Notes: a model not told the origin generated them from the sequence alone. A DNA stretch of 47,679 nt from Acidobacteriota bacterium (GCA_019244185.1 JAFATB010000024.1:1-47679); one strand, 5' to 3'. Positions 4,103-25,871 are shown, numbered from the stretch's first letter. Numbers and translations: made by a program.

Positions 4103-7100
4103 ATGTCCTTCGTCCATCTCCATCTCCACACCGAATACTCACTCCTCGACGGCGCCTCGCGGCCCGAAGATCTCGCCAAGCGCGTCGGCAAGCTGGGCAT
4201 GCCCGCGTGCGCCATCACCGACCACGGCAACATGTTCGGCGCGGTCGAGTTCTACAACGCGATGAAGAAGGAGGGAGTGAAGCCGATCATCGGCTGCGAG
4301 ATGTACGTCGCCTACGGCTCCCGCTTCGACAAGGCGGGCGTCGAGGATGGCCAGGCCGACGCCGGCGCGAACAACCACCTCATCGTCCTCGCGGCGAACG
4401 ACGCCGGCTACAAGAACCTCGTCAAGCTCGTGAGCGCGGGCTACACGGAAGGCTTCTACTACAAGCCGCGCATCGACAAGGAGCTGCTGCGCGCGCATCG
4501 CGAGGGACTGATCGTCCTCTCGTCGTGTCTCAAGGGCGAAGTCTCGCAGTCGCTCGCCGGCGGCAACTGGGAGAAAGCGAAAAACGCCGCGCTGCAGTAC
4601 CGCGAGATCCTCGGACCCGAAAACTTCTTTCTGGAGATCCAGGACCACGGCATTCCGGATCAGCAGAAGATCGTCCCGATGATGGCGCAGCTCGGCCGCG
4701 AGGTCGGCCTGCAGCTCGTCGGCACGAACGACTCGCATTACCTCGACAAGTCGGATGCGTTCGCGCACGAGGTCCTGCTCTGCATCGGGACAGGCAAGAC
4801 GCTGGGCGACGAGAAGCGGATGAAGTTCTACTCCGACGACTTCTACGTCAAAGGTCCCGACGAGATGCGGCGCGTGTTCGGCGATTATCCGGAGGCGGCC
4901 GACAACACCGTGCGCATCGCCGAGCGCATCAACCTCTCGCTCGACGTCCACGGCTATCACCTGCCGAAGTTCCCCGTGCCCCCGAAGGAAGATCTCGGCA
5001 GCTATCTGATGAAAGTCGCGCGCGCGGGACTCGAGCGGAGGCTCAACGCGATGGCGCCGCTCTTCGCCGCGAAGCAGAAGAAGCACGAGGTGAAGGAGTA
5101 CTGGGACCGGCTCGAGCGCGAAGTCGACATCATCAAGACGATGGGCTTCCCCGGCTACTTTCTCGTGGTGTGGGACTTCATCAAGTACGCGCGCGACCAC
5201 GGTATCCCGGTCGGACCGGGACGCGGTTCCGCGGCGGGCTCGGTGGTGGCGTGGGCGCTCGAGATCACGAACGTCGATCCGCTCGAGTACGACCTCCTCT
5301 TCGAGCGCTTCCTCAATCCCGAGCGCATCTCGATGCCCGACATCGATCTCGACTTCTGCATGAACCGCCGCGGTGAAGTGATCGACTACGTGCGCGACAA
5401 GTACGGCAAGGAGAACGTCGCGCAGATCATCACGTTCGGGACGATGGCGGCCAAGTCGGTGGTCCGCGACGTCGGCCGCGTGATGGGGCATCAGTACGGC
5501 TTCGTCGACAAGATCTCGAAGATGATCCCGGGTGGTCCCGGCGTCACGCTCACCGACGCGAAGAAGGACTCGCCGCAGCTCGCCGAGGCGATCAAGAACG
5601 ACGACGAAGTGAAGAAGATCATCGAGATCGGCGAACGGCTCGAAGGTCTCTCGCGCCACGCCGGCATGCACGCCGCGGGCGTGGTCATCACGCCGGAGCC
5701 GGTCACGAACTACGTGCCGCTGTATCGCACGAACCGCGATGAAATCGTGACGCAGTTCGACATGCGCGTGGTCGAGAAGATGGGCCTCGTGAAGATGGAC
5801 TTCCTCGGCCTGCGCACGCTGACCGTCATCGACGACGCGGTGAAGTCGGCGAAGGCGGTCGACGGCGTCGACATCGACATCGAGGCCATTCCGCTCGACG
5901 ATCCCGAAGTCTACCGGCTGTTTCAGGAAGGCCGCACGAAGGGTGTGTTCCAGTTCGAGTCGGGCGGCATGGTCGACCTGCTGCGCAAGTCGCGGCCGAC
6001 GCAGTTCGAGGATCTCGCCGCGCTCAACGCGTTGTACCGGCCGGGCGCGCTCGACGCGGGCATGGTCGACGTCTACGTGAAGTGCAAGATCGGCACGCAG
6101 AGGCCGAAGTACCTCGTGCCGGTGATGAAGGAAGTGCTCGAGGAGACGTACGGGATCATCGTCTACCAGGAGCAGGTCATGCAGATCGCGCAGCGCGTGG
6201 CCGGCTACTCGCTCGGCCAGGCCGACCTGCTGCGCAAGGCGATGGGCAAGAAGGACGCGGCGGTCATGGCCGCGGAGCGCGGCAAGTTCGTCGAAGGCTC
6301 GGTCAAGAACGGCTACGAGGCGAAGAAGGCCAACGAGATCTTCGACTACATCGAGCCGTTCGCGCGCTACGGCTTCAACAAGTCGCACTCCGTCGCCTAC
6401 GCGCTCGTCGCGTACCAGACCGCGTGGCTGAAGGTGCACTACCCGCGGCACTTCATGGCCGCGCTGATGTCGTCGGAAATGGACCGCACGGAAGCGGTCG
6501 TGAAGTTCATCAACGAGGCGAAGTCGCTCGGCATCGAGGTGCTGCCGCCCGACGTCAACGAGTCGAACATGTTCTTCACCGTCGTCGGTCCGAATATTCG
6601 TTTCGGCCTCGGCGCGGTGAAAGGCGTCGGCGAGAGCGCGATCGAATCGATCCTCATCGCGCGGCAGAAGCAGGGCCGCTTCTCGTCGCTCTTGCAGTTC
6701 TGCGAGGAAGTCGATCTCCGCGCCTGCAACAAGAAAGTGCTCGAAGCGCTGATCAAGTCGGGCTCCTTCGACTTCCTCGGCATGACCCGCCGCGCGCTCT
6801 TCGAGCAGCTGGAGTCGACCGCTGATTCCGCGCAGCGCGCGAAGGACGAGAAGGAGCGCGGCCAGAACTCGCTCTTCGGCATGTTCGCCGCGGCCGCGCC
6901 GAAGTCATCGACGCCGTCGCAGGTGAGCCGCATGCCAGAGTGGCCGGAAGACGAGCGCCTGCGCTACGAGAAGGAAACGCTCGGTTTCTACATCACCGGA
7001 CATCCCCTCAACCGCTACTCCGACGAGCTGCGGCTCTTTGCCAACGCGACCACCGACTCGCTGTACAAGCACGTCGATGAGGTCGTGAACATCGGCGGCA

Positions 7101-21016: not shown

Positions 21017-21985
21017 GGCGATCGTCTCCACGATGCGCGGCACGTGCACGTGGCAATCCTCGACGATGATGCGCACCCGTTCCGCGGGCGAGCCGGCGAT
21101 GGCGGTGCCGGCCACGAAGACGTTGCGCACGTTCGTCTCCATCGTGGCGTCGTCGAGCCGCGGCTTGTTGTCCGCAGACTGCAGGTCGACGCCGAGCATC
21201 GCGAAGAGCGAGGTGTCCTGCTTGTAGCCGGTGAGCATGAGCACGAAGTCGGCGGGAACTTCGCCGATCGGATCGAGCACGACGCTGCCGCCGCGGATCT
21301 CGCGCGGCGTCGTGCCGGGGAGAAAACGCACGCGCTTGTCGCGGATCATCGAGCGGATCTCCGGGAGCAGCCAGAACTTCACGCTGGCGGCGTCGAAGTC
21401 GTTCTTGCGATAGCTGAGCGTGACGCGCGCGCCCGCGCGCTGGCAGCGCACGGCCGCCTCGACCGCGGAGTTGCGGCCGCCGATGATCAGCAGCTGCTTG
21501 TCAAAGTACGTATGCGGATCGTGGAAGTAGTGGCTGACGTGCGGCAGGTCTTCGCCGGGAACGCCGAGGAGCTTCGGCATGTGCATCGCGCCGATGGCTA
21601 AGACGAGCGCCTCGCAGTGGTACGTATGTTGACCATCGACGGCGTTCGTCGTCAGCGTGAAGCCGCCGTGCTCGTCCTGGCGTGCATCGACGACGCGCTC
21701 GTACGTCCGCACGCGCAGGTCGAACTGCAGCACGACCGCGCGGAGGTAGGCGAGGAACTCCTCGCGCGTCGGCTTCTGCTGGTCGGCGGTCTGGATCGCG
21801 ACGCCGGAAATGGCGAGGCGCTCGGCACTGGAGTGGAAGAGCATCTGCTGCGGATACCACTGCATGGTCGAGCCGATCTGGCCGGCGTCGAGTTGCAGGT
21901 AGTCGATCCCTTCGCGTTTGAGCGCGACGGCGAGCTCGAGGCCGATGGGACCGGCGCCGATGATGATGACGGAGTGATGCGTCAC
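20999..21985 (-). CDS. YpdA-like FAD/NAD(P)H oxidoreductase (thioredoxin-reductase fold)
   Basis: GAGPIG, KPTREEFLAY, VSHYFHDPH, GGRNSAVEAA, METNVRNVFVAG; no CxxC; GTG 21985 overlaps the TerB stop. Confidence 0.85.
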   Translation of the reverse strand: MTHHSVIIIGAGPIGLELAVALKREGIDYLQLDAGQIGSTMQWYPQQMLFHSSAERLAISGVAIQTADQQKPTREEFLAYLRAVVLQFDLRVRTYERVVDARQDEHGGFTLTTNAVDGQHTYHCEALVLAIGAMHMPKLLGVPGEDLPHVSHYFHDPHTYFDKQLLIIGGRNSAVEAAVRCQRAGARVTLSYRKNDFDAASVKFWLLPEIRSMIRDKRVRFLPGTTPREIRGGSVVLDPIGEVPADFVLMLTGYKQDTSLFAMLGVDLQSADNKPRLDDATMETNVRNVFVAGTAIAGSPAERVRIIVEDCHVHVPRIVETIASRLRQ

Positions 21986-22440
21986 GAGTCGCGCTCGCGG
22001 AGGACGGCGGATTTCGCGTCGATCATCACGTGATGTTCGAGGCCGAGGAGATCGGCGAGCTTGCGGACGAGATAGTTCTCGTACTCGGTGAGCTTGCCGT
22101 CGGAGTAGACCACGCGCCACATCGTCTTCACGATCTCGATGCGGTCGGCGAGCGGCGTGTTCTTGCGGATGTAGTGCGTCAGCGCGAAATGATCGACGGT
22201 CTTCTTGCGGATCTCGTCGGCGGCGGCGAGGAGCTGTTTCGTCTCCTCCTGCGCGAGGCCGAAGCGGTTGGCGAGGAACGACTCGACGCTGCCGTCTTCG
22301 GCCGGCGAGAACGTGCCGTCGGCGTACGCGATCTCGAGAAGCACGGCGGCGGTGGCGAGGCGCAGCGGATCGTGCTGCACGCGGGGTGCGGTGCTGGATG
22401 GACGTCCGGTGAAGTGGTCGAGGATGCGGGCGATGCTCAC
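21982..22440 (-). CDS. TerB family (tellurite resistance-like) protein
   Basis: LLEIAYADG...WRVVYSDGKLTEYE...LADLLGL. Confidence 0.88.
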   Translation of the reverse strand: MSIARILDHFTGRPSSTAPRVQHDPLRLATAAVLLEIAYADGTFSPAEDGSVESFLANRFGLAQEETKQLLAAADEIRKKTVDHFALTHYIRKNTPLADRIEIVKTMWRVVYSDGKLTEYENYLVRKLADLLGLEHHVMIDAKSAVLRERDS

Positions 22441-22961: not shown

Positions 22962-23020
22962 TCGTCGCTTGGGTAGGAAAAATGCCGAGCCAGTCTCTCC
23001 TTTGAACGAGGAGATCGAGC

Positions 23021-23326
23021 ATGGCGGCAACACGCGGCAGTAAAAAAGCCGGTGCGAAGAAGAGCAGCGGCGCCAAGAAGGCCGGGGGCGCGAAACGTTC
23101 CGGCGCGAAGAGCAGCGGCGCGAAGCGTTCCAGCGCGAAACGCAGCGTGAAAAGCGGCGCGAAGAAAGCCGGCGCCGCGAAACGTTCGCGCACGCCCTAC
23201 GACCAGCTGAAGAAAGCGCGAAAGATCGTCATCAAGAAGGCGAAGCGGATCACCACCGCGATCAGCGGAGGGCTTCCCGGACACGACGACACGCCGGGTA
23301 ATGACGACACGACGGGCAATGACTGA
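23021..23326 (+). CDS. Lys/Ala/Ser-rich histone-H1-like small protein with acidic tail DDTPGNDDTTGND
   Basis: SD GAGGAG upstream; repeated GAKK/GAKR units; duplicated C-terminal motif. Confidence 0.8.
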   Translation: MAATRGSKKAGAKKSSGAKKAGGAKRSGAKSSGAKRSSAKRSVKSGAKKAGAAKRSRTPYDQLKKARKIVIKKAKRITTAISGGLPGHDDTPGNDDTTGND

Positions 23327-24248
23327 TCGCGTGCCACGCCCACGCGTTCATCGCTGGCGGCGCAGCGCGCTCGTCATCGGCTCCGCCGCCGTGGCCGCGT
23401 TCCTCGCTCGTCCGCGCAAGCCGGCCGCGCAGTCGTCGCATGCGGCGCCGCCACCCGTTGCGCCGCCGCCGGTCGCGTCCGCGCAGGACGAGCTCGACAT
23501 CGACGCGCTCCTCGCGCGCGATAACCGCCGCGGCTGGAGCGCGTTCTGGCTCGAGGCGGCGATCGCGATCGCGGTTCTGCTGCTCGTCGCCGTGCCGCTG
23601 TTCTTCGCGTGGCGCGGCCGCACGGCGTACGTCCTCGTGCACGATCTGCGGCAGGGCGATCCGATTCGCGTCGAAGATCTGCAACCGATGCGGATGCCGC
23701 GGCTCGATCACGCCTTCCGCGATCTCGCGGCTCTCGCTGGCGGCGTGCAGGCGCGGAACGACCTGCAGTCCGGGAGCGTGCTCCACACGACCGATCTCGT
23801 GCGCCTGCAGGCGGTGGCCACGACCGATCTCGCGGCAGGCGATCGCGTCGAACCATCGCACAACGTCACCTTCAAACCGTTGCCGTACGCCGCCGACGCG
23901 CTGACGCCGAACACGACCGCGCGGAAGACGGTGACGCGGTTCGTCGCCGCGGGATCGCTACTGCATGCGAGCGTTCTGGCCGACGCGCCGCCGCCGGCGA
24001 AGGCCGCGGACATCGCGGTTCCGCTGCGCGCGTTCAGCGGCGCGCTTGATGTCGCAGAGGGTGCCGAGGTGGTGGTCGTGGCGACGCCGCGCAACGCGGG
24101 GAATGCGGCGGCGTTCGAGCACGTCCGGATCGTGTCCGTCGATCGCGGCACCGAGCCGCCGAAGTTCATCGTGGCGATGACGCAGGCGGAGGCGATGCGG
24201 TTTGCGGCGCTGCCCGCGGCCGACTTTACGATCATGCAGAGGAGATGA
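23319..24248 (+). CDS. Membrane-anchored SAF-domain / CpaB(RcpC)-like protein
   Basis: Two TM segments, two SAF-like repeats (DLRQGDPIRVEDL...DLQSGSVLHTTDL; DLAAGDRV...VAAGSLL), CpaB-like tail (AVPL...GAEVVVV...VRIVSV...VAMTQAEA); ATG overlaps the upstream stop. Confidence 0.7.
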   Translation: MTDRVPRPRVHRWRRSALVIGSAAVAAFLARPRKPAAQSSHAAPPPVAPPPVASAQDELDIDALLARDNRRGWSAFWLEAAIAIAVLLLVAVPLFFAWRGRTAYVLVHDLRQGDPIRVEDLQPMRMPRLDHAFRDLAALAGGVQARNDLQSGSVLHTTDLVRLQAVATTDLAAGDRVEPSHNVTFKPLPYAADALTPNTTARKTVTRFVAAGSLLHASVLADAPPPAKAADIAVPLRAFSGALDVAEGAEVVVVATPRNAGNAAAFEHVRIVSVDRGTEPPKFIVAMTQAEAMRFAALPAADFTIMQRR

Positions 24249-24251
24249 GCG

Positions 24252-24530
24252 ATGGCGGAGAACGACGAAGAAAAGTTAGCGCGTGCGTATCGCGTGCTCG
24301 CCGAGACGGCCGCAGAGTTCGGCATTGTGATCGATGGTCCGGGACAGATGATCGATTTCGGGTATCTGCCGTCGGATGAGGTCCAGCGGTTCGGTCAGAA
24401 GATTCGCGAGCAGCAATACAGCATCGATCCGCGCGATTTTCTGCGATGGCGCGAACGTGGCGTGCAATGCAACGTCGGCGCGCTTGTTTCCGAGCTCGCC
24501 GGCAAAGACGACACGCCCGGGAACGACTGA
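24252..24530 (+). CDS. Small hypothetical protein ending in DDTPGND
   Basis: SD GGAG upstream; 3 nt after the previous stop; same C-terminal motif as 23021-23326. Confidence 0.75.
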   Translation: MAENDEEKLARAYRVLAETAAEFGIVIDGPGQMIDFGYLPSDEVQRFGQKIREQQYSIDPRDFLRWRERGVQCNVGALVSELAGKDDTPGND

Positions 24531-24532
24531 CG

Positions 24533-25795
24533 ATGACCAGCATCTTCTCCGCGATCTCGGGACAGTTCGGCCGCGCGATCATCATCGGCGCGCTGCTTCC
24601 GGCCGCCGTCTTCGTCCTCGCCACGCACCTCTTCGTCGTGCCGATGCTGCCGTGGGACTGGCGGCTCATCACGCGCGTGGCGGCGCTCGATCCGGAGTGG
24701 AAAGTCGCGTCGCTCGTCGTGGCGGCCACGATTCTGGCGGGGCTGCTCTACACGATGAACACGAGCATCATCCGCTTCTACGAAGGCTATCCGTGGCAGC
24801 ACGGCTGGCTCGGCCGCCGTCGCTCGGACGCGTATCGGACGAAGCTCGGCGAGCGGACCGCGACCGCGAAACAGGCGCGCGAGCTGCGGCGGCGGTTGTC
24901 GCGCAACAAACCGAAGGACGCACGTCTGCTCGATCTGGCGAAGGCGCGCGACGACGCCGATCGCGCGATCAACAGCGATTTTCCCGCGTCCGGTTCCGTG
25001 CTGCCGACGCGGCTCGGCAACGCGATCCGCGCCTTCGAAACGTACTCGCGGAATCAGTACGGCATCTCCGCGATCCCGCTCTGGCCGCGGTTCGTCGCGC
25101 GCATCCGCTCCGACCACGCCGCCGCGATCGACGACGCGAAGACATCGTTCGACGTGGCCGTGCATCTCTCGTTTCTCTCCGCGCTGACGGCCTTCCTGAT
25201 GATCGTCATCGCCGCGGTGTATCCGCTGCCGTTCGCGACGATGCCCCTGTTCGCCGCGTGGGCGATCCGCGTCGTGGCCGCGTCCGCGCTGAGCTGGGGT
25301 TTCTACGAGCTGGCCATCGACCGCGCGATGGCCTGGGGCGACCTCGTGCGCGGCGTGTTCGATCTTTACCGCTGGGAAGTCCTCAAAGACCTCGGCTACG
25401 AGACGCGTCCCGGCGACCTGCTCTCCGAGCGCGCGCTCTGGACGGCGATCTCGCGCCAGATGATCTTCGGCGATCCCGAGCTCGGCGCGAACCTTCGCTA
25501 CGAGCCGAACACGCTGGTCGTCCCGCACAACGAATGGATTCGCCTCACGCGCGCCGAACGCACGACGAAGAGCGGAACGGAGATCTCGATCGTGGTCGAG
25601 AATCGCGGCGTCGATCCCGCGACGAAGATCGATCTCCGGGAACGGATCGCGGACGGCAGCGTCTACGTCGCCGGCTCCGGACGCCTCGACGGAACTCCGA
25701 TCGTCGTGCGCGGAACGAACCCGTACTCGTTCGCCGTCGGAGATCTCGTGGCAGGGGCGAGAGTCGAGGTCACGTACCAGCTCGCACGCGCGTGA
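24533..25795 (+). CDS. Four-TM membrane protein with C-terminal DUF11-like Ig domain
   Basis: TM segments, LPTRLGNAIRAFE...YG...LWPR motif, C-terminal ISIVVENRG..ATKIDLRERI..G..YVAGS...GDLVAGARVEVTY; start ATG 24533. Confidence 0.75.
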   Translation: MTSIFSAISGQFGRAIIIGALLPAAVFVLATHLFVVPMLPWDWRLITRVAALDPEWKVASLVVAATILAGLLYTMNTSIIRFYEGYPWQHGWLGRRRSDAYRTKLGERTATAKQARELRRRLSRNKPKDARLLDLAKARDDADRAINSDFPASGSVLPTRLGNAIRAFETYSRNQYGISAIPLWPRFVARIRSDHAAAIDDAKTSFDVAVHLSFLSALTAFLMIVIAAVYPLPFATMPLFAAWAIRVVAASALSWGFYELAIDRAMAWGDLVRGVFDLYRWEVLKDLGYETRPGDLLSERALWTAISRQMIFGDPELGANLRYEPNTLVVPHNEWIRLTRAERTTKSGTEISIVVENRGVDPATKIDLRERIADGSVYVAGSGRLDGTPIVVRGTNPYSFAVGDLVAGARVEVTYQLARA

Positions 25796-25871
25796 ATCCA
25801 TCACACCGATTTCACATCGGTCAGTAGTTTCGGAACGTGCTTCGCCTCCGCGATGTGGGATCATCCTCTCC

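Follow-up and report, generated by a model that had tools for sequence, protein, structure and literature searches.

A stretch of DNA of 47,679 nucleotides from an Acidobacteriota bacterium (GCA_019244185.1, JAFATB010000024.1:1-47679), referred to in what follows as the window, contains four tightly packed genes on the plus strand. In order they encode a small basic protein (A), a membrane protein with a SAF domain, a small acidic protein (B) and a protein with four transmembrane (TM) segments and an immunoglobulin-like (Ig-like) end, which we call the 4TM protein or the hub. A and B end in the same short peptide, the tail. Comparison of sequences from many genomes indicates that this operon is one case of a widespread gene cassette, in which the 4TM gene adjoins genes for small proteins, often DNA-binding, and the tail shared by these proteins differs from one locus to the next. 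What is conserved in the cassette is the 4TM gene together with tailed proteins, usually accompanied by the SAF gene, and not the four-gene layout set out in a preliminary description of this DNA. Our proposal, whose chances we judge to be evenly balanced, is that the tail serves as a docking peptide by which cytosolic proteins of various kinds are brought to the hub on its cytoplasmic side. The observations that carry it are the linkage of the genes, the conservation of the tail at the level of the peptide, the sharing of tails within loci and the variety of the proteins that bear them.

A genome scan with the 4TM protein returned 45 loci, from Acidobacteriota, Chloroflexota, Gemmatimonadota, Nitrospirota, Dormibacterota and Rhodothermales. 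When the open reading frames (ORFs) of these loci were clustered, one neighbour was recurrent, a single-pass protein of the SAF family encoded on the same strand, and this was present in 40 of the 45. The five loci without it are L021 (N-terminal fragment only), L035 and L054, which are at contig ends, L045 and L051. The genes usually follow the order 4TM, small ORFs, SAF; in the clade of the window (the window itself, L056, L010, L011, L013, L015 and L018) the SAF gene lies upstream. Small tailed ORFs, usually one or two, are found between the 4TM and SAF genes or adjoining them, and their presence in homologous loci bears out the earlier suggestion that the motif is tied to the co-encoded membrane proteins. 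Among 7999 candidates scored, 221 were relatives of the 4TM protein at E 0.001, and these came from at least six phyla. In the 120 relatives listed, all those with a name are either hypothetical or titled for a DUF11-type repeat.

The boundaries and junctions of the four genes given in the preliminary description all held when the sequence was read again: A and the SAF gene overlap by 8 nt (with the 23319 start), and gaps of 3 nt and 2 nt separate SAF from B and B from the 4TM gene. A is rich in lysine, alanine and serine, with an isoelectric point (pI) of 11.2 and 28 lysine and arginine residues among its 101, and has a C-terminal helix that precedes the tail. It matches no family with a hidden Markov model (HMM) in Pfam or NCBIfam, and there was no HMM match to HU/IHF (Bac_DNA_binding, PF00216). 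The label “histone-like” that had been attached to A is justified by composition alone; the score of an H1-like NCBIfam model was 16 bits, where the cut-off is 80. B, by contrast, is an acidic protein (pI 4.5), and its Atlas model resembles a small four-helix bundle of the carrier-protein kind with a TM-score of 0.62, which is under the bar of the tool and serves as a lead only. No signal peptide was found in A or B. BLASTP aligns residues 80-95 of A with residues 77-92 of B, the last 16 residues of B, and also finds the second copy of the tag; nothing else aligns, in keeping with the claim that the two proteins are alike in the terminal motif alone. The three copies of the tag (23285-23305, 23303-23323 and 24507-24527) differ only by ccg/acg/ccc, ggt/ggc/ggg and aat/aac, and the first and third encode an identical peptide with three synonymous differences in 21 nt. 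In a six-frame scan of the whole genome of 5,304,552 bases, DDT.GND was present in A and B alone. Because of this confinement, and because the tail is kept in relatives, we take the tail to be more than a chance resemblance.

The relatives of B are few. B is a member of a rare family of proteins of 86-91 residues, and a phmmer search of 1.84 billion representative proteins gave 10 matches at E up to 0.001, eight of which are small (78-91 residues) and one of which is the window's own protein from a later start. Two long matches (917 and 1202 residues) were matched only in pieces and were excluded from the family. When B was aligned with seven others, the bodies of these proteins were 36-43% identical to that of the window's B, and 6 of the 11 invariant columns fell within the tail (L82, G84, D86, D87, T88 and G90), so that the tail is the most conserved part of the family. 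The family was absent from 400 other genomes of the class searched, and a metagenome scan yielded two confirmed loci out of 368 candidate stretches. Metagenome contig L056 carries the same four genes with nearly identical spacing (an 8-nt overlap and then two gaps of 3 nt), and its tails are LPGNDDTPGDD in the A-like protein and LAGKDDTHGDD in the B-like protein. The alignment of A with this ortholog, which has 94 residues, is limited to the last 34, the tail included. The match at L057, from the same scan, comprises 23 residues on a contig of 1.8 kb.

Tails vary between loci and are common within a locus, with a core that consists of a hydrophobic residue, any residue, Gly and mostly Asp or Glu. 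The exact string DDTPGND is confined to one clade, and other loci carry other tails built on this core. Two different proteins possess one tail in the window, L056, L012, L014, L028, L033, L038, L040 and L050 (Table 1). The motif is present two or three times in one protein in L034, L037, L041, L043, L030, L017 and the window's A. At L034, L[PA]GDDDT[PS]FW occurs once internally and once at the terminus, and at L041 the motif is found once near each end of the protein; it is thus not always C-terminal. With sharing taken as at least 7 of the last 12 residues in two non-overlapping small ORFs, 8 of 42 loci share a tail, compared with 1.8 expected from cross-locus pairs; one of the eight, L010, represents a duplicated flanking ORF and no tailed pair. 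The strict pattern [LFYMIV]xG[DE] is present in the last 30 residues of 15 of the 85 ORFs that lie between core genes and in 74 of the 2364 other small ORFs of the same loci, an enrichment with an odds ratio of 6.6 (p 2e-7).

Where a locus has two tailed proteins (eight loci), the pair agree at 66 of 104 tail positions, and at 31 of these 66 their codons differ, which supports the view that the motif is kept as a peptide and not as DNA. If the shared stretch were instead a feature of the DNA, such as an element for translational coupling or ribosome binding or the trace of a recent gene conversion, one could understand why the end of either tail in the window is 2-8 nt away from the start codon of the following gene, and why the tag-coding stretches are 71-76% identical as DNA. 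However, the use of different codons largely refutes this explanation. In addition, the tailed ORFs of L033 are followed by gaps of 61 and 15 nt, those of L028 are on the opposite strand, copies of the motif are internal or N-terminal in L034 and L041, and more than half of the invariant columns of the B family are in the tail. A feature of the DNA is for us barely credible as the cause.

A Pfam scan of 41 small ORFs matched eight to a family and 33 to none. Among the tailed proteins are HU in L033 and L050 (E 1.6e-20 and 3.7e-21), in the position equivalent to that of A, DUF4332/helix-hairpin-helix proteins in L026, L034 and L041, an EAD7 protein in L012 (E 2.7e-18) and a YtxH protein in L038. 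In L040 there is a match to HC2 below the cut-off, and lysine-rich proteins are also among those that bear tails. On a phage contig, L076, GroES (Cpn10, E 5.6e-36) bears an extension of 31 residues that contains LAGD. The tails extend domains that are otherwise complete, for example residues 6-97 of GroES and 7-94 of HU. A basic protein (pI 10.1-11.3) is paired with an acidic one (pI 4.1-5.2) in seven of the nine loci that have two tailed proteins.

This variety bears on a suggestion of the preliminary description, that A and B are precursors resembling ribosomally synthesized and post-translationally modified peptides (RiPPs), with the tail as a core peptide tailored by the membrane proteins. 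Small ORFs with a common terminal peptide, next to uncharacterised membrane proteins, are what this suggestion would predict. The positional equivalents are, however, full domain proteins (HU, Cpn10, EAD7 and DUF4332), and YtxH is a further folded protein among those tagged. There is no RiPP enzyme family, nor any other modifying enzyme, in the operon, and no RiPP enzyme family among the recurrent neighbours. The tails are polar or acidic, with no Cys and none of the Ser/Thr patterns typical of RiPP cores. Taken together, these points make a RiPP-like origin vanishingly improbable.

The EAD7 protein of L012 deserves separate mention. In the portions of two reports that concern it (PMC7159879 and PMC8195603), EAD7 is described as a domain that recruits effectors, and the genome of L012 contains 38 EAD7 matches. 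The tailed EAD7 protein, the number of these matches and the published role suggest that, in this genome at least, the hub is wired to a conflict system.

What might receive the tails? AlphaFold models of the 4TM protein (pLDDT 87 for the whole and 91 for residues 1-315) exhibit two TM hairpins, with a helical domain of about 130 residues that separates TM2 from TM3; TM4 is followed by long helices and a beta-sandwich. The sandwich, at residues 319-420, is clear in the model (VIA Z 8-10), and the HMM signal there, of the DUF11 type, is weak and under the cut-off in both Pfam (E 0.02) and NCBIfam (E 0.0019); the Ig-like tail of the preliminary description is thus upheld as a modelled fold and not as a family assignment. 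The first 320 residues matched no family in Pfam or NCBIfam. In a fold search with the full model the Ig-like end was the sole match, and with the helical model of 315 residues the best hits were a hairpin of 48 residues (VIA Z 7.5) and a Foldseek match with E 0.3. No solved stator, transporter, peptidase or pore-former was prominent among the matches listed for the models. On the evidence of these models, then, the helical part appears to match no solved fold found, and its assignment as MotA-like or as an enzyme appears unsupported. Look-alikes in the Atlas are unnamed clusters only, and longer fusion forms of the domain were not found, which the tool's own note treats as weak evidence.

The orientation of the hub can be estimated from its charged residues. 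In 28 sequences the flanks that lie on the same side as the large domain have a mean of 9.1 lysine plus arginine residues, versus 1.5 for the N-terminus, loop 1 and loop 3. By the positive-inside rule these counts place the large domain and the C-terminus on the inner side, so the large helical domain and the Ig-like end should be cytoplasmic. This topology may be set against the possibility that the tail is a C-terminal export signal, and that the 4TM and SAF proteins form a small translocon that carries tagged proteins across the inner membrane. In favour of this, the tail is usually C-terminal and the tagged proteins have no N-terminal signal peptide; SAF domains, moreover, occur in the periplasmic parts of pilus and flagellar machines, and the partner gives weak matches to CpaB and FlgA. 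But nearly all of the 4TM protein would be cytoplasmic, with periplasmic loops of about 19 and 7 residues, and the cassette is without an ATPase, an outer-membrane component or a known secretion family. The homologs in Ralstonia, Streptomyces and the phage have no detectable SAF gene nearby, and internal copies of the motif occur. We consider export highly improbable.

Across 28 diverse hub sequences 22 residues are invariant. These include E84, T159, N163, E169, D277 and R280, which belong to motifs adjoining TM2 and TM4. Their location invites the idea that the tail is a site of processing or modification, and that the 4TM protein is a peptidase or transferase at the membrane-cytosol interface, which acts at or after Gly-Asp and so activates or releases the tailed proteins. 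Since the only near-universal positions of the tail are the hydrophobic residue and the Gly plus acidic residue, and since the tails extend complete domains, a cleavage or modification there would be reasonable. On the other hand, no His, Cys or Ser is invariant in the hub, no known family or fold of peptidase or transferase was detected, and internal and tandem copies of the motif are ill-suited to a single maturation cut. Processing is, in our estimate, rather unlikely.

The SAF partner has been considered in a similar way. In the window the SAF domain scores above the Pfam cut-off (Table 1), and the domain was detected in 15 of 21 family members tested. The CpaB and FlgA models remained below their cut-offs, with CpaB/RcpC (TIGR03177) at 19.9 bits against 71 and its match restricted to residues 102-163. 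Many partners possess an extra N-terminal domain of 60-130 residues, which is weakly helix-hairpin-helix-like. A comparison of this domain with the DUF4332 proteins by hhalign gave a probability of 11%, and in a profile search of the PDB the Rad51 N-terminal region, L32e and NusA were matched only below the threshold (E 0.009-1), so that the resemblance may be used as a lead only. Because this long N-terminal domain has no signal peptide, the N-terminus of the partner is probably inside and the SAF domain periplasmic. In 36 of 39 partners (31 found by script and five by eye, one position further in) the TM helix has an acidic residue where it begins on the cytoplasmic side, and basic and aromatic residues usually come before it.

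These features recall ion-driven stators, and the 4TM and SAF proteins might be a pair in the manner of MotAB, ExbBD or ZorAB, to which the tails couple cytosolic proteins; this would be compatible with docking. The topology proposed for the hub equals that of MotA (TM1-TM2, large cytoplasmic domain, TM3-TM4, cytoplasmic C-terminus), and the partner would combine a cytoplasmic N-terminal part, one TM helix and a periplasmic domain, with the acidic residue just described. However, the 4TM protein gave no match to PF01618 at E up to 1, and the same model finds three true MotA/ExbB genes in the genome. The acidic residue of the partner is at the boundary of the helix and not within it, and no charged residue within the helices of the 4TM protein is invariant. 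A stator is decidedly improbable.

Docking fits best, because the proteins that bear tails are folded and of many kinds, the peptide may occur more than once or internally and co-varies within a locus, and the bulk of the hub is on the cytoplasmic side. According to this model the tail would be a short linear motif with a conserved hydrophobic-x-Gly core, usually followed by Asp or Glu and then by 6-15 locus-specific polar residues. Through it, unrelated small cytosolic proteins would be recruited to one membrane-embedded hub, the 4TM protein, which would usually be paired with a single-pass protein that exposes its SAF domain to the periplasm. The repetition of the motif in one protein would fit binding to an oligomeric receptor. 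In the window the recruited pair would be the basic, lysine-rich and presumably DNA-binding A and the acidic, four-helix B, and these may compete for one site or co-occupy it. We infer the binding of tail to hub, the surface that is bound and the biological role from these considerations. A complex prediction with the 4TM, SAF and B proteins returned a score of 0.00; run without controls, it counts neither for nor against binding.

Several observations weigh against docking as formulated here. The core motif is short and degenerate, and with the strict pattern a motif-bearing ORF is present in 14 of the 28 loci that have a gap between core genes. The window's own tails, in which G is followed by H or K, miss this pattern, which at the same time renders the strict count conservative. 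Many of the tail calls in the wider list were made by eye, the ORF calls in GC-rich loci are mechanical, and in L015 the lysine-rich small ORF lacks a tail of this kind. The invariant residues of the hub, some of them polar, could as readily belong to a catalytic site as to a binding site. Finally, homologs without an Ig-like domain or a SAF partner (L018, L022, L076 and L077) still adjoin tailed ORFs, so neither the Ig-like domain nor the SAF partner can be the sole receptor.

The distribution of the cassette provides information about its likely role. The genes within 3 kb of the operon encode a TerB-family protein, a conserved protein of 159 residues, a GNAT protein and an alpha/beta hydrolase. 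The 159-aa gene is present in all 31 genomes of the genus searched, and in G015, G022 and G409 it is followed by the GNAT gene 19-69 nt on; in the window the separation is 2.9 kb. This comparison indicates that the operon is an insertion between adjacent core genes. Nothing convincing was found in the way of direct repeats flanking it. The TerB-family gene (window 21982-22440, minus strand; Pfam E 4e-32), which is upstream beyond the 159-aa gene, is part of the conserved backbone, because it also adjoins the empty site in these three genomes. The 4TM gene was found in 4 of 40 relatives (G012, G017, G036 and G006); this count and that for the 159-aa gene both take in G002 and G024. In G012 and G017 the 4TM and 159-aa genes are on separate contigs. 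The 4TM relative in G006, of the same genus (C15:8470-8985, locus L005/L009), has an internal TGA and a match limited to residues 154-334, and is probably a decaying copy.

Mobile elements carry the 4TM gene as well. On phage contig L076 the order is GroES, 3 nt, the 4TM relative and then the small and large terminase genes, and a second viral scan found this phage contig only. Relatives of the 4TM protein with 27-28% identity are encoded by 19 Ralstonia megaplasmids, and one of similar identity by a Streptomyces plasmid, with a caspase-family gene 2 kb upstream. On both kinds of plasmid a tailed ORF lies upstream of the 4TM relative; in one Ralstonia record an ORF of 134 residues ending in LMLPGEPGQTPTQFPLPPESDGD is followed by the 4TM gene. 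A Ralstonia relative (L077:5004-6182) is without the Ig-like domain, and its disordered acidic end contains GEDTPGDDSEDTG, which resembles the tag of the window and may be a copy of the motif in cis.

That the cassette is patchily distributed, occurs as an insertion and is carried by plasmids and a phage points to an accessory role, and the recurrence of DNA binders among the tailed proteins suggests that DNA at the membrane may be involved. As its likeliest role we infer an accessory module for conflict or stress, by which DNA-binding or adaptor proteins would reach the membrane. One may go further and imagine a new class of membrane hub, borne also by a phage and by plasmids, into which cytosolic proteins are plugged by a co-evolving code of terminal peptides. 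In its common form such a hub would keep two proteins at the inner membrane, a DNA binder of the nucleoid type (HU, helix-hairpin-helix or lysine-rich) and an acidic counterpart. It would be the membrane arm of a conflict system, as effector or sensor, and might for instance catch incoming DNA at the envelope or report it; in some genomes EAD7 adaptors would wire it to larger immune networks. This fuller picture is tentative and, as a whole, unlikely.

The coordinates of the features in the window, the tails of other loci and the positions of a large neighbouring protein are collected in Table 1.

Table 1. Features of the operon, tails of two-protein loci and a large neighbouring protein
Feature	Position	Strand	Basis or detail
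Insertion holding all four operon genes	22962-25871	+	2.9 kb; between 159-aa gene (ends 22961) and GNAT gene (starts 25872)
Ribosome-binding site GAGGAG of A	23008-23013	+	7 nt 5' of ATG; read from sequence
Protein A gene	23021-23326	+	101 aa
Tail of A	23273-23323	+	LPGH + DDTPGN + DDTTGND, variable part in tandem duplicate; sequence, repeat scan, BLASTP
SAF-domain membrane protein gene	ATG 23319 (alternative ATG 23301) to 24248	+	309 aa
TM helix of SAF protein	about 23559-23627	+	TM scan; Trp-Leu-Glu at helix start
SAF domain	about 23622-23801	+	Pfam SAF E 8e-9, above cut-off
Ribosome-binding site GAGGAG of B	24239-24244	+	7 nt 5' of ATG; read from sequence
Protein B gene	24252-24530	+	92 aa
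Tail of B	24495-24527	+	LAGKDDTPGND; B family alignment
4TM protein gene	24533-25795	+	420 aa
Ig-like beta-sandwich of 4TM protein	about 25505-25792	+	AlphaFold model
Tails, L033			first ORF LPGDSTNEKDEER; second ORF LPDDPTNPKDPER
Tails, L038			first ORF LPGDPTKLPRI; second ORF VAGDPTKLPRL
Tails, L050			first ORF GGSNTTHSDV; second ORF GGGNTTKSDI
Tails, L012			first ORF RGGEGTEADA; second ORF RGDEGTEADP
Tails, L014			first ORF GDESIRGW; second ORF GNEGMRGW
Tails, L028			first ORF LAGDIAGKGGTRPR; second ORF LLGDIAGKGGTRPR
Tails, L040			first ORF YGDETGGQRPKKP; second ORF YGEERGGQKPNRP + 5 further residues
Large protein, six loci	L017:781-3648, L046:306-2960, L047:375-2960, L037:6447-8861		
Large protein, six loci (continued)	L020:6999-9269, L048:7259-9231	-	

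Other genes were noted beside the cassette in particular loci. The large protein of Table 1 (750-955 residues) adjoins it in six, and four members that were scanned had no Pfam match. In L017 and in L046/L047 it is followed by a small ORF, which in L017 has 85 residues and is Cys-rich at its end. L046, from a metagenome-assembled genome (MAG) of Acidobacteriaceae, and L047, from a MAG of Dormibacterota, are nearly identical over several genes, namely those for proteins of about 880, 71, 104 (tailed) and 163 residues, the 4TM protein and the SAF protein; a binning error or a recent transfer could account for this. In L023 (3506-3982), L046 (3483-3974) and L047 (3483-3974) a conserved protein of about 160 residues with no Pfam match is encoded immediately before the 4TM gene, and in the same three loci the 4TM and SAF genes are at most 15 nt apart or overlap. 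Just upstream of the Chloroflexota cassette L012 are a subtilase (S8; L012:19-2580) and a protein resembling protein-isoaspartate methyltransferase with a C-terminal extension (L012:2594-3868). In L010, from Thermoanaerobaculia, the cassette is flanked on both sides by copies of one ORF end (2314-2580 and 5325-5777, minus strand) and by two related XRE-type helix-turn-helix genes (2589-2840 and 5843-6142, plus strand), an arrangement that may stem from a duplication or mark the two ends of a mobile element. A longer related ORF (278 and 282 residues) lies on the opposite strand in L013 and L018.

The preliminary description knew of no described system with this layout, and we also found none. 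PADLOC-DB 2.0 gave no family for any of the four operon proteins (E up to 1), and full-text searches of the literature, supplements excluded, yielded no description of the cassette. No known family or system appears to fit, and the resemblances discussed here are offered as analogies. The acidic C-terminal tail of SSB and the C-terminal peptide of FtsZ are terminal peptides on a flexible linker that bind hubs. Like the tails, they are short, mostly terminal and partly acidic, and several different proteins use the peptide on one partner surface, as we propose here. In SSB and FtsZ, however, the tail of one protein binds many, whereas here many proteins would present one tail, of a sequence that varies with the locus, to a single co-encoded membrane partner. 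LPXTG, PEP-CTERM and GlyGly-CTERM are sorting signals with dedicated sortases, in which the motif precedes a hydrophobic helix and a basic end, on proteins that start with a signal peptide. A C-terminal signal of the sortase type was considered for the tails and rejected: they are polar or acidic with no hydrophobic stretch, and A and B have no signal peptide. Type I secretion was rejected too, as the ABC transporter, membrane-fusion protein and outer-membrane factor are absent from the insertion and from the recurrent neighbours. CpaB/RcpC and FlgA are like the SAF partner in possessing an N-terminal membrane anchor, a SAF domain and a beta-rich C-terminal part; they differ in that the scores are below the cut-offs, pilus and flagellar genes are not nearby, and many partners have the extra N-terminal domain. 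No Tad gene (secretin, ATPase or pilin) is within 3 kb of the operon, and no pilus gene recurs in 47 loci.

Three published systems offer further comparisons. In coupling by effector-associated domains (EADs), as set out in the relevant parts of Kaur et al. 2020 (PMC7159879), proteins encoded side by side likewise contain copies of one small non-enzymatic element, and the copies of one locus resemble each other more than they resemble copies elsewhere, as is the case here. The shared element of the cassette is instead a peptide of 10-20 residues and not a folded domain, and it is absent from the membrane proteins, so that contact here would be between unlike partners. Further, the window has no core of NTPase, vWA or caspase type such as those parts of the report describe, and no EAD model matches its proteins. 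Zorya, in the sections of its description that concern the complex (10.1101/2023.12.18.572097), resembles the cassette in having a membrane pair with a periplasmic anchor and soluble proteins that act on DNA, and in being accessory and patchy. There is no relation in sequence (no PADLOC match, PF01618 unmatched), and the soluble proteins of the cassette would be small binders of the nucleoid type and not the nucleases or helicases of that account. The adaptors that bring Vps13 to organelles, in the corresponding portion of PMC6168272, are unrelated proteins with a related short motif that compete for one site on a membrane-associated protein; that system is eukaryotic and without homology to the cassette, and is an analogy only for two proteins with one tail.

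If docking is true, it would define a widespread family that lacks a Pfam model for its helical part, together with a simple rule for finding the partners of its members. It would also place peptide-based coupling of proteins in bacteria beside the domain-based adaptors, and it would imply that a short extension can send proteins of general function, HU and GroES among them, to a site at the membrane. Since each tail is specific to its locus, the tails would then provide a natural set of orthogonal peptide-receptor pairs. If, in addition, the link to conflict systems holds, the hub would represent a new membrane effector module for bacterial immunity.

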